From a virus, in the UHGV virus genome UHGV-1420163: a DNA stretch of 36,018 nt. One strand, written 5' to 3'. Below, piece after piece: positions 31,300 through 35,454 of the stretch; within the stretch, counting starts at the first letter, position 1; the number at the start of each line of letters is the position of its first letter. Under the pieces are notes generated by a model, which saw nothing but the letters and a program-made list of their open reading frames with translations, did no database searches and was not told where the DNA came from. Position numbers and translations under genes: made by a program.

Positions 31300-31400
31300 T
31301 TCCTTAAAGTTCACTAACTTATGATGTAGTGAGCTTTTTATACCCATAAAATGTACTATTGGTACTTTACATTAATGAACTTTAAGTACATCATAAGCCC
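31300..31400. promoter_or_regulatory. Putative left operator/promoter region
   Basis: TGAACTTTAAGTACA at about 31375-31389 resembles the OR operator with one mismatch; boundaries approximate. Confidence 0.4.
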
Positions 31401-31552
31401 ATAGACGAACGGCGCGTCTTTAAACCATGCGTCGGGAGCGCGGCGGGTTCAGGATGAACGGCAATGCTGCTCATTAGCGAGAAGGCTTTTTTGCTTTTAG
31501 TCACAAAAAGCAAAGCAGCTTTTTGATATAGAAAAAGAAAAAGGAGGCTGAT

Positions 31553-31996
31553 TTGAAGAGTGCTACAGTTTACACGGCAATGAGAGTTAAGCAATATGGC
31601 GGCGTACCTTCGGTAGAGGTAAGGTGTGATGATAAAAGAACCAAAGTTGTTACTGATTGCCTTCTGCTTTTTAAAAGCATAGATGAGGTAATTTTTATTG
31701 GCGCTGAAAATCTTCACCCTTTGATAAAAGCAGAGATGAAGCAATGTGCAATCGATGCATTGGGAGTTGGGCAAGGCAAGTCTCAGATCGAAGCAAAGCA
31801 AATGCTTACAGAGCTTGAAAGCAGCAGACGTAGACAAGCAAGCAGGGCAAGACAATTTCACGATGCGATCGCAGGATGGAGCAGAGAGCTTATGTCTTTA
31901 AATGTAGACATACAGAGAGGAATTGATATTCCAACAATAAGGTCAAGAATAGGTACGATCGCAGAGAACATGGAAAAGCTAAATCCAAAGAAATAA
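31553..31996 (+). CDS. Hypothetical protein in the N-gene slot (147 aa, TTG start)
   Basis: AAGGAGG RBS 6 nt upstream; first gene after the left operators; followed by an intrinsic terminator. Confidence 0.55.
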   Translation: MKSATVYTAMRVKQYGGVPSVEVRCDDKRTKVVTDCLLLFKSIDEVIFIGAENLHPLIKAEMKQCAIDALGVGQGKSQIEAKQMLTELESSRRRQASRARQFHDAIAGWSRELMSLNVDIQRGIDIPTIRSRIGTIAENMEKLNPKK

Positions 31997-31998
31997 TA

Positions 31999-32020
31999 AC
32001 CCGCTAAGGCGGGTTTTTTA
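31999..32020 (+). terminator. Intrinsic terminator after the N-slot gene
   Basis: ACCCGC-TAAG-GCGGGT hairpin followed by TTTTTT. Confidence 0.7.
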
Positions 32021-32131
32021 TTACATAAATAACCGTATTTACTACCGCAAGCCACGCAGTGAAATGGGTGTGACTTGTGTTGGTCGCCAGAAAATGAAAT
32101 TAGGCAGCAAACCACTTATTTGAGGTGAGAT

Positions 32132-32320
32132 ATGGAACGTAAATTTGAAATTTGGTTGGATTCCGGCGCAAACATTCATTCTTGCAAAAAGACAGTTGTA
32201 ACACTCGATGATCTTGGCTTATCCGAGAATGAGTGGAATGAAATGGATCAGGACGAAAAAGACGAAAACATGCGTGATGTAGCATTTGAAACGCTTGATT
32301 GGGGATGGAAGGAAATTTAA
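32132..32320 (+). CDS. Hypothetical small acidic protein (62 aa)
   Basis: GAGGTGAG RBS; strongly acidic C-terminal half. Confidence 0.55.
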   Translation: MERKFEIWLDSGANIHSCKKTVVTLDDLGLSENEWNEMDQDEKDENMRDVAFETLDWGWKEI

Positions 32321-32372
32321 GTGATGGCCGCATAGTCGGCCTTTATTTTTGGCATAAACAACAGAGGCTAAC

Positions 32373-32663
32373 ATGGAATTTAAAGGTACTGAAGGTAAGT
32401 GGGAAATAATGATGGATGGCGATGAGATTAAAATCATCCAGGCAGACTCACTTGAAAATGGCGCAGGCTGGCGTTCGTATATTGCAATCTGTGAGGAAGT
32501 TCAATGCATTGAAGATGCCAATCTAATAGCGGCAGCACCAGACCTTTTAAATGCCATGCAAGCGATGCTAAACAAGGCATACAAGCAAAAATGGAATGAC
32601 CATTATCCTGATGAAGTATCGAAAGCACTGTCAGCAATCAGCAAGGCTCTGGGAGGTGAATGA
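32373..32663 (+). CDS. Hypothetical protein (96 aa)
   Basis: GAGG RBS 6 nt upstream; ATGA overlap with the next gene. Confidence 0.55.
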   Translation: MEFKGTEGKWEIMMDGDEIKIIQADSLENGAGWRSYIAICEEVQCIEDANLIAAAPDLLNAMQAMLNKAYKQKWNDHYPDEVSKALSAISKALGGE

Positions 32664-32863
32664 TGTGCGAGTTTTATGAAGCAGATATCAAACGCCCAGA
32701 AATGGCAAGTGATGCGACATTACGTGATTACTTCGCGGCAAAGGCTATGCAAGCAATGATTAGCAATCCATCGATTATCGATAATGATTCTGATGGAGCT
32801 GTTAATTATGCAGCAAGCGCTGCATATAAGTTTGCAGACGCAATGCTCAAAGCTCGCGAATAA
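32660..32863 (+). CDS. Hypothetical protein (67 aa)
   Basis: Start overlaps the preceding stop; followed by a 9-bp-arm hairpin. Confidence 0.5.
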   Translation: MMCEFYEADIKRPEMASDATLRDYFAAKAMQAMISNPSIIDNDSDGAVNYAASAAYKFADAMLKARE

Positions 32864-32958
32864 GCACTGTGTATTCATTCCAACGAGTGAATACACGGAG
32901 CAATGTCGCTCGTAACTAAACAGGAGCCGACTTGTTCTGATTATTGGAAATCTTCTTT

Positions 32959-32982
32959 GCCCTCCAGTGTGAGGGCTTTTTT
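32959..32982 (+). terminator. Intrinsic terminator upstream of cIII
   Basis: GCCCTC-CAGTGT-GAGGGC followed by TTTTTT. Confidence 0.65.
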
Positions 32983-33048
32983 ATATGCATACCAATAACG
33001 CTTCACTCGAGGCGTTTTCGTTATGCAATCAAACAGAAGGAGCATCCT

Positions 33049-33219
33049 ATGCAACAGTTCGCTATTGCAGGGGCGGCATCGGTTCGCCCTTTCAACCCGA
33101 TTTTATCGGTACAGCATTCACGAAAAAATATTTTAACCGGAGCAGACTTTAAACAACCAAGAATGAAAAGCTTGCTCGAAAAGCTTTGGGATATTTTGAA
33201 ACAACAAGGCCGTCCATGA
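33049..33219 (+). CDS. cIII: CIII-like FtsH inhibitor (56 aa from ATG 33049)
   Basis: MQQFAIAG...SLLEKLWDILKQQGRP parallels recalled lambda CIII; AGGAG RBS. Confidence 0.7.
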   Translation: MQQFAIAGAASVRPFNPILSVQHSRKNILTGADFKQPRMKSLLEKLWDILKQQGRP

Positions 33220-34664: not shown

Positions 34665-35144
34665 ATGAAAATCTGCTCAAGATGCCATCAACAGAAGGAA
34701 GAAAGGGACTTTCAAATCAGAAGAGCATCCAGAGATGGATTAACTGCCGCTTGCCGGGCTTGCCTGGCTGAATACGACAAAGAGCGCGCGGGATTGCCAC
34801 ATCGAGTATCAGCAAGGAGAGAATATCAATCATCGGAACGCGGCAGAGAACGGTGTAACGCAGCCAAAAAGCGGTTCATTCAGAGCAACCCATGGAAAAG
34901 AAAAGCCCACATCATCGTGGGTAATTTTTTGCGCGACGGTAAGCTAATCCGACCACCACAATGTGAGTGCTGCGGATCAGAATGCAAACCACAGGCGCAC
35001 CACTGCGACTACAGCAAACCAACCGATGTGATGTGGCTCTGCAAGTCATGTCATGTCGAGTGGCACAAACATAACAAACCTATCTACCCAGACGAGGAGC
35101 CAGTAACTCTCCCCTTCCCTCGTCACGCTATTCACGCAATTTAA
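34665..35144 (+). CDS. Cys-rich HNH-like protein (159 aa)
   Basis: CxxC pairs and HH...N...H arrangement (AHHCDYSKPTDVMWLCKSCHVEWH). Confidence 0.55.
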   Translation: MKICSRCHQQKEERDFQIRRASRDGLTAACRACLAEYDKERAGLPHRVSARREYQSSERGRERCNAAKKRFIQSNPWKRKAHIIVGNFLRDGKLIRPPQCECCGSECKPQAHHCDYSKPTDVMWLCKSCHVEWHKHNKPIYPDEEPVTLPFPRHAIHAI

Positions 35145-35157
35145 TCAGGAGAAAATC

Positions 35158-35454
35158 ATGCCAGCGCCTCTGTATGGTGCGGATGACGCGCGCCGCTGTT
35201 CCGGCAATTCCGTATCGGAGGTGCTGGATAAATTCAGAAAAAACTACGATCGGATAATGTCGCTACCGCAGGAAACGAAAGAGGAAAAGGAATTTCGCCA
35301 CTGTATATGGCTTGCAGAGAAAGAAGAACACGAGCGAATTTACCAGACATCAATCCGACCATTCCGCAAAGCCACATATACCCACTTCCCTGAATATATC
35401 GACCCGCGCCTGCGTAATTACCGCTCACGCTATGGCGCTATCAGTAATGACTGA
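35158..35454 (+). CDS. Hypothetical early protein (98 aa), possibly Abc2-like
   Basis: AGGAG RBS; size and position comparable to P22 abc2, but sequence identity not confirmed. Confidence 0.45.

Follow-up and report, generated by a model that had tools for sequence, protein, structure and literature searches.

Three small genes of the early-left region of an HK022/HK75-type lambdoid prophage: probable shuffled cassettes upstream of a PreS/LPR1 homologue

The early-left regions of lambdoid phages, transcribed from the promoter pL, contain several genes whose products are known to interact with the host: Ral, gp17, Kil and cIII. Two others, sieB and Nun, are exceptions among the genes of the region, in that the prophage expresses them. 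In phage lambda, the interval from ral to ea10 encodes a small RNA (sRNA), named PreS or LPR1, whose 3' end is at the terminator tL2a; the sRNA is about 88 nucleotides (nt) long with a processed form of 68 nt, depends on Hfq, appears only in the lytic cycle, raises the translation of dnaN and helps phage DNA replication, and is reported to be conserved in 2,537 genomes (bioRxiv 10.1101/2024.10.31.621285, Silverman et al.). Here, we study such a region in the virus genome UHGV-1420163, a stretch of 36,018 nt that we call the window, where three small genes, labeled A, B and C, precede a homologue of PreS/LPR1. Our preferred reading, to which we give a probability of roughly 0.6, is that the interval holds three independent, horizontally shuffled early-left accessory genes, followed by the 5' flank of the sRNA gene.

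By sequence comparison, the window is a lambdoid prophage of the HK022/HK75 type, in which leftward transcription, that of pL, runs along the + strand. The segment that begins at the end of cI and comprises pL and putL, the HK022-type RNA antiterminator, is essentially identical to its HK75 counterpart; the HK75 record bases its annotation of these features on similarity to HK022. As in both phages, antitermination would be put-mediated: putL is found 3' of pL, and the window contains no open reading frame (ORF) for N, of which only a 77-nt 3' remnant is left. The order of the features is pL, putL, an ORF of 147 amino acids (aa), a terminator, the N remnant, A, a terminator, B, C, a hairpin, preS up to tL2a, a terminator and cIII, and the same arrangement is found in one human-gut metagenome contig. 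Contrary to HK022 and HK75, the place of Nun is taken by the unrelated, basic 147-aa ORF (phrog_13686), and contrary to HK75, the three cassettes A, B and C are added between this ORF and the tL2 block.

Terminator-like sites with U tracts are found before, between and after the genes, at 31998-32015, 32326-32341, 32959-32976 and 32997-33016; over 6 kb, the terminator scan yields 12 terminator-like sites, versus 6.1 +/- 2.8 in shuffled sequences. The site between A and B (32326-32341) had received no emphasis in the first-pass annotation. The promoter scan yields no site within 32016-32372, and none upstream of A or B: the nearest match on the + strand, at 31923-31950, lies upstream of the terminator at 31998. 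Since the N gene is absent and putL is present, the expression of the genes further downstream should depend on put-RNA antitermination. Transcription of A, B and C should thus be carried out by an RNA polymerase modified by the put RNA and reading through the terminators. A first-pass annotation of this DNA had described genes transcribed from pL, placed between terminators and relying on antitermination, and this description holds, the agent being an HK022-type putL RNA and not N.

The same observations bear on the possibility that one or more of the three genes are expressed in the prophage and protect the lysogen, as the exclusion or defence genes sieB, Nun and rexAB do. The interval between N and cIII of lambdoid phages does carry sieB in lambda and P22, and Nun in HK022 and HK75, and in one Aeromonas phage a gene of the family of A stands alone on the opposite strand, inside the tail module, much like a moron. 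However, no promoter-like site is found upstream of A or B, each of which lies directly 3' of a terminator; no PADLOC model matches A, B or C; and the three genes are on the pL strand, whereas sieB is on the opposite strand in both lambda and P22, with its own promoter annotated in P22. We regard a role in the lysogen as highly improbable.

The first-pass annotation listed three ORFs of 62, 96 and 67 aa, and all three turn out to be genes. They are preceded, at a distance of 4-8 nt, by Shine-Dalgarno (SD) sequences, GAGGTGA for A, AGAGG for B and GGGAGGTGA for C, and they encode acidic proteins with isoelectric points (pI) of 4.23, 4.52 and 4.56. When they are compared with diverged homologues, the ratio of non-synonymous to synonymous substitution rates (dN/dS) is below 1 wherever it can be estimated, ranging from 0.14 to 0.78 in nine comparisons; four further comparisons give no estimate, the rate dS being incalculable in three of them and no synonymous difference existing in the last. 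On these ratios, A, B and C are under purifying selection. Chance ORFs are ruled out by dN/dS together with the family matches described below, and the three families are conserved across many phages.

These families come with little annotation. NCBIfam and PADLOC give nothing useful for A, B and C, and Pfam gives only DUF7167, for A, and sub-threshold matches, for B. Searches of the PDB with single sequences and with family profiles return nothing below an expectation value (E) of 0.3, and the hidden Markov model of Ral (PF11058) matches none of the three proteins at E <= 1. Nothing relevant to DUF7167, PF27050, the PHROGs, XkdD or the peptide motifs came out of full-text literature searches, and the motifs of A, B and C are absent from the supplements of the accessory-gene screen of the Silas lab (PMC12373910). 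A, B and C thus add to families that already exist and are uncharacterised, and they lie in a region well known to be mosaic; they are ordinary accessory genes.

That the region is mosaic can be read directly from its flanks. Gene A lies between the same borders as orf28-ral of lambda: upstream, the 3' end of N, whose stop region embeds an SD sequence, and downstream, the GGCC-TTTATTTTTGGCATAAA terminator. The U tract and 3' flank of this terminator (GGCCTTTATTTTTGGCATAAA) are those found 3' of ral in lambda and Sf101, with a stem of different sequence. The SD sequence and first codons of A (ATGGAA...AATTTGAA) also match those of lambda orf28. The 3' remnant of N, the orf28-like start and the post-ral terminator being common to lambda, Sf101 and mEp043, gene A sits in the orf28-ral slot. 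Contrary to its borders, the protein itself resembles lambda Ral (PF11058) neither in sequence nor in fold. The N remnant is a scar left by the recombination through which gene A arrived; in this put-RNA phage without N, the remnant (32047-32123) also carries the SD sequence of the next gene. Genes B and C, for their part, are inserted between the terminator that follows A and the block 32864-32976, in which the window is 100% identical to the tL2a and bsq4 boundary block of lambda and Sf6. The earlier suggestion that this slot carries genes of the ral type is confirmed as to the slot: A occupies the place of orf28-ral in lambda and Sf101, and B is a homologue of P22 orf78.

Gene A is a member of DUF7167 (PF23768), with a score of 34.7 bits for a cut-off of 24.4, residues 3-62 being aligned with profile positions 1-58 of 60; it matches phrog_8831 at 2.5e-32, and the RefSeq label on an identical gene is 'DUF7167 family protein'. 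Its close homologues are few: 18 clusters in a large protein database, and 31 of 5426 complete E. coli genomes. The more distant DUF7167 genes come from P22-like phages, one Aeromonas phage, Vibrio phages of 130-140 kb and a Synechococcus phage. The gene does not need the company of the other two, since it occurs without B and C in IME10, UPF_BP1 and an Aeromonas phage, among others.

The slot and the composition of A raise the question of whether it is an anti-restriction protein, either a DNA mimic or a modulator of type I restriction-modification that acts like Ral and replaces it. Besides the borders that A has in common with orf28-ral of lambda and Sf101, this idea draws on its charge, the strong acidity reported by the first-pass annotation being indeed found (17 D+E versus 7 K+R, for a net charge of about -10 in 62 aa, in addition to the very low pI), and on the presence of homologues in both temperate and large virulent phages, as is the case for many counter-defence genes. 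The search for the fold of a DNA mimic, a check proposed along with the original description, gives no match to a solved mimic of the Ocr or ArdA type, and fold searches with A give no informative match at all. One viral contig has the order N, A, a 74-aa gene, a true Ral (PF11058), B and C, such that A and Ral coexist in a single operon. An anti-restriction function for A is, in our opinion, improbable.

Gene B belongs to the family Phage_P22_Y8K6. It matches phrog_1273 at 8e-30, and P22 orf78 matches the same PHROG at 1.2e-15; when the alignment of B is compared with P22 orf78, hhalign gives a probability of 95.9% and an E of 6e-9. The copy of Pfam that was scanned directly lacks the PF27050 model; a protein identical to B has a precomputed PF27050 match. 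Relatives of B are named 'XkdD/Y8K6 family phage-associated protein' by the Prokaryotic Genome Annotation Pipeline (PGAP). B and P22 orf78 have in common the invariant helix LIAAAPDLLxAL (motif L(I/A)(A/S)AAP(D/E)LLEAL) and the C-terminal motif AAI(S/G)KALGxE-stop. Their place in the operon is also the same, behind the ral slot (the order in P22 is ral, orf78, orf87, 17), and both end in a stop codon that overlaps the start codon of the small gene that follows. They differ in their N-terminal, beta-rich halves, which are unrelated in sequence, that of B being shared with lytic Vequintavirinae phages, and in their downstream partners, a DUF551-like protein (orf87) in P22 and C in the window. 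Gene B is itself a mosaic, with recombination breakpoints at the conserved motifs.

The predicted structure of B consists of three strands and a long helical hairpin, with a predicted local distance difference test score (pLDDT) of 72, and a fold search with this model gives generic matches only. The Y8K6 family is found in temperate and lytic phages (Skatevirus, Vequintavirinae), sometimes as tandem paralogues. In eleven of the loci that were compared, two to four B-like matches fall on consecutive ORFs; these environmental viral contigs suggest tandem paralogues that diversify the variable N-terminal half, with the proviso that some may be a single gene split by a frameshift. Two annotations attached to relatives of B were rejected. 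The proteins that depositors labelled 'Ead/Ea22' do not match Pfam Ead_Ea22, and B itself has an hhalign probability of 0.7% with lambda Ea22; and the apparent fusion of B to a 'nucleotide pyrophosphohydrolase', in the record of one Klebsiella phage, is an annotation artefact, the coding sequence containing stop codons.

Genes B and C overlap by ATGA at 32660-32663. The first-pass annotation saw in this overlap a coupled pair; the overlap is present, but the two genes do not behave as a dedicated pair. A C-like gene is found in 8 of 75 viral loci of the B family, and a B-like gene in 9 of 80 loci of the C family. Among complete E. coli genomes, some part of B-C is present in 226, and the full pair in 18. 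In the same slot downstream of B, one finds phrog_10407, phrog_6949, a 42-aa ORF, the DUF551-like gene of P22 (orf87), and others: at least six unrelated genes follow B, and their start always overlaps or abuts its end. The 3' end of B, GCAATCAGCAAGGCTCTGGGnGAnGArTGA, provides a purine-rich, SD-like stretch and an ATGA, a TAATG or a closely abutting start, in nearly all of 18 members. With partners so varied behind a conserved 3' end, coupling is a property of the joint of the B family and not of B-C. The 3' end of Y8K6 genes (...AISKALGEE-stop) looks like a joint for both recombination and translational coupling; it encodes an SD sequence and an overlapping ATGA or TAATG start that serve any gene recombined behind it. 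As a separate observation, the last 30 nt or so of Y8K6 genes, corresponding to 32630-32665 in the window, are conserved at the DNA level in 34 of the loci compared.

A rival reading makes B and C the two components of a dedicated module, similar to a toxin-antitoxin pair or else a heterodimer, in which coupling would set the stoichiometry. The overlap of the two genes would be expected of such a module, and the identical B-C pair is indeed found behind different upstream genes: ral in Sf101, a gene of the Nmad5 family and others in E. coli prophages, and in metagenomes as well. Some distant viral contigs, too, have a B-like gene next to a C-like one. However, a partner is present in only about one locus out of nine for either family, and the alternatives behind B are many; no promoter or operator of toxin-antitoxin type appears in the scan, and the space between the end of the terminator (32326-32341) and the first codon of B is a mere 31 nt; and both proteins are acidic, with no toxin-like domain detected. 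A module in this strict sense has, we believe, very little chance of being correct, and the two genes are better treated as independent cassettes.

Gene C belongs to a very large, unnamed family, with matches to phrog_2201 and phrog_37111, no family match in the Pfam copy that was scanned, and no relative in the PDB. Its conserved part is a C-terminal domain of two helices, RDYFAAKAMQ...AYxxADAMLKAR, and the invariant residues of the family alignment are R22, D23, Y24, A26, A27, M30, Y56 and D60. The close homologues number more than 1400; at E <= 0.001 the family comprises 41,307 representative clusters, 5,812 of them also reaching E <= 1e-10. Typical members have 65-90 aa and an N-terminal motif GG(P/x)AFP (GGPAFP), present in most of the members listed. 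This motif is absent from the C of the window, which starts with MMCEFYEADIKRPEMASDA and hence represents an N-terminal variant subgroup of the family. The sole function label among its PHROG matches is that of a 'transcriptional regulator', a weak match at 3.8e-7; the Pfam scan detects no DNA-binding domain.

Directly after the stop codon of C comes a hairpin, in which positions 32867-32880 pair with 32885-32898 to form a stem with a folding free energy (dG) of -21.7 kcal/mol and a z of -7.4, none of 200 shuffled sequences folding as well. The hairpin had been described earlier as having 9-bp arms, at 32869-32896, immediately behind the third gene: it is real and it does follow C, but the stem is longer, with 14 perfect base pairs. 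It is not a terminator bounding gene C. Behind the stem comes AGCAAUGUCGCUCG, which contains no U run, and the hairpin is not among the sites called by the terminator scan; it is instead the conserved 5' flank of the PreS/LPR1 gene. The block 32864-32976 is 100% identical in lambda, where it forms the spacer between ral and ea10, and in Sf6, HK75 and Sf101, and the record of Sf6 labels it as the boundary sequence bsq4 and as 'terminator; homology to phage lambda; tL2A'. Because the conserved block begins at GAATAA, many different upstream genes end in a Glu codon and a stop codon that lie inside it.

On this identity, the window carries a homologue of PreS/LPR1, whose dependence on Hfq, lytic expression and effect on dnaN are properties described for the lambda sRNA only. 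Contrary to lambda, the block comes after B-C and not after ral, and ea10 is absent: as in HK75, preS is followed by a second terminator and cIII. When 88 nt are counted back from the U tract of tL2a, the position reached, about 32896, coincides with the hairpin's 3' foot. The article that describes the sRNA (bioRxiv 10.1101/2024.10.31.621285) does not mention this hairpin. In P22-like phages of Salmonella, six pairs of the stem are changed on both sides, in a compensatory manner. In a set of 119 viral contigs, all with the invariant flanks TAAGCAC and GAGCAAT, the hairpin has 17 variants that represent four unrelated stem sequences, every one a perfect hairpin of 10-14 bp; what sets one of the variants apart from its nearest relative is a clean double change, from A-U to U-A. 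This covariation means that the structure of the hairpin, as opposed to its letters, is under selection. From its position and covariation, we infer that the hairpin marks the cut of the pL transcript that would give the 5' end of PreS, and that would leave the upstream cassette mRNA with a protective stem-loop at its 3' end. The shorter stem variants make RNase III less likely than RNase E as the enzyme that would cut there.

The coordinates of the features discussed above, and of their closest neighbours, are given in Table 1.

Table 1. Features of the early-left region of the window, in the order of their positions
Feature	Position	Strand	Evidence and remarks
pL promoter	31366..31394	+	TTTACA-17-CATCAT; promoter scan; identical to annotated HK75 pL (alignment)
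putL, HK022-type RNA antiterminator	about 31410..31472	+	100% identical to annotated putL of HK75
147-aa basic ORF, TTG start	31553..31996	+	phrog_13686 full-length, 5e-92; pI 9.4
Intrinsic terminator after the 147-aa ORF	31998..32015	+	7-bp GC-rich stem and UUUUUU; dG -13.6, z -4.7
Remnant, 3' end of a lambda-type N gene, with TGA stop 32121-32123	32047..32123	+	77 nt; no mismatch to Sf101 N, one mismatch to mEp043 N
Gene A, 62 aa, acidic, orf28-ral slot	32132..32320	+	Pfam PF23768, phrog_8831
Intrinsic terminator after gene A, homologous to the post-ral terminator of lambda	32326..32341	+	terminator scan
Gene B, 96 aa	32373..32663	+	Pfam Phage_P22_Y8K6 (PF27050), PHROG 1273; homologue of P22 orf78
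Gene C, 67 aa	32660..32863	+	phrog_2201 4e-18; phrog_37111 1.4e-15
Hairpin directly 3' of the stop codon of C	32864..32901	+	perfect 14-bp stem, loop CAAC, 2 outer pairs reaching 32864 and 32901
PreS/LPR1 homologue	32896..32983	+	32864-32976 identity to lambda; 5' end estimated from published ~88 nt
tL2a intrinsic terminator, 3' end of PreS/LPR1	32959..32976	+	terminator scan; identical to Sf6 tL2A
Second terminator-like hairpin, upstream of cIII	32997..33016	+	terminator scan; second annotated terminator upstream of cIII in HK75
cIII homologue, next conserved pL gene	33049..33219	+	phrog_550 'CIII' 4e-22, residues 36-91 of ORF 32944-33219

What the three proteins do can be approached through the place and time of their expression. 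In the lysogen, A, B and C would be silent, judging from the biology of put in HK022 and from the lack of a predicted internal promoter. Upon loss of the repressor, an RNA polymerase modified by the putL RNA would read through the terminators and transcribe them as delayed-early genes, and the small acidic proteins, to go by their position, would attach to proteins of the host or of its defences in the opening minutes of the lytic cycle, for host takeover or counter-defence, in the manner of their neighbours Ral, gp17, Kil and cIII. Such early-lytic binders of host or defence proteins are, given position and timing, what A, B and C most likely are. The anti-restriction, anti-defence or exclusion roles put forward in the first-pass annotation amount to a guess from position. 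Counter-defence in particular is a tentative assignment, one that we hold to be plausible but short of even odds.

A different role is that A, B and C modulate the physiology of the host, or the lysis-lysogeny or replication programme of the phage, in the manner of Kil, cIII and Ea10, and not the defences of the host. Their operon and timing are also those of cIII, kil, a Rad52-like recombinase and a single-stranded DNA-binding protein (SSB), the adjacent PreS sRNA boosts the DnaN of the host, which aids phage replication, and the PHROG label of C points to a regulator of transcription. That label is a weak one, however, without a DNA-binding domain to go with it, and we think such a modulation unlikely, whether of the host or of the phage programme. 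A bolder proposal would combine several of the above: the 3' end of Y8K6 genes would be a plug-and-play coupling adaptor across lambdoid, P22-like and other phages, A, B and C would be new effectors of counter-defence or host takeover, and the hairpin, kept for its structure, would be the processing signal for the 5' end of PreS and would stabilise the upstream cassette mRNA. Taken as a whole, this combination is speculative, and we lean clearly against all of its parts being right at once.

Several points weigh against the reading of the interval as three independent pL accessory genes followed by the flank of an sRNA gene. In about 11% of the loci of either family, a gene of the other family lies next door, usually with the B-like gene first and in distant phages too, so that the two families may have some looser functional link. 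The proteins have no function in Pfam, NCBIfam or PADLOC and no sequence relative in the PDB, and the fold searches with A and B give no informative match. Gene A seems to be inactivated in the laboratory phage mEp043, where the copy (locus L002, about 1610-1800) is frameshifted, with a 1-nt deletion and a change from Trp to stop relative to the window, and where the record annotates a 51-aa ORF: the gene is dispensable at least there. A scan for consensus promoters could miss a weak or non-sigma-70 promoter that expresses a gene from the prophage. Finally, the position given for the 5' end of PreS is an estimate that derives from a size on a gel (~88 nt).

The surroundings of the three genes offer a few observations of their own. 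The 147-aa ORF (31553-31996), which has no match in Pfam, NCBIfam or PADLOC, lies directly behind putL, and its arginine-rich stretch SSRRRQASRAR recalls the motifs with which N and Nun bind RNA; a further exclusion factor, or a transcription factor, is what this ORF could encode. In Rfam, which has no family matching putL or PreS in our scan, the region of the terminator that follows this ORF (31978-32039) gives sub-threshold matches to STnc370 (32 bits, for a gathering threshold of 54) and isrK (18 versus 50), most likely a similarity of terminators only. Downstream of the A-C block, cIII is followed by a small gene of phrog_2123 and by the genes of a Rad52-like annealing protein and of SSB. 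Between SSB and an ORF of 98 aa (35158-35454), an ORF of 159 aa at 34665-35144 is rich in Cys and His and resembles, by eye, an HNH protein (CxxC...HH...CxxCH); the counterpart of the 98-aa ORF in the matching metagenome contig carries the Pfam domain Anti-RecBCD_p2, and is a homologue of Abc2.

The locus itself is ordinary, and what deserves to be followed is the size of the C family, the constancy of the coupling joint of Y8K6 genes and the covariation of the hairpin. The family of C is among the larger ones of no known function, and screens of early phage effectors could sensibly include A, B and C, given that their neighbours ral, 17, kil and cIII are proven host-interaction genes. The compensatory changes in the hairpin upstream of PreS offer a testable explanation of how a recently described sRNA is made. 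With the constant blocks that flank the slot, namely the 3' end of N, the post-ral terminator and GAATAA with its hairpin, and with the 3' joint of the Y8K6 genes, the exchange of cassettes in this operon becomes visible at the level of nucleotides.

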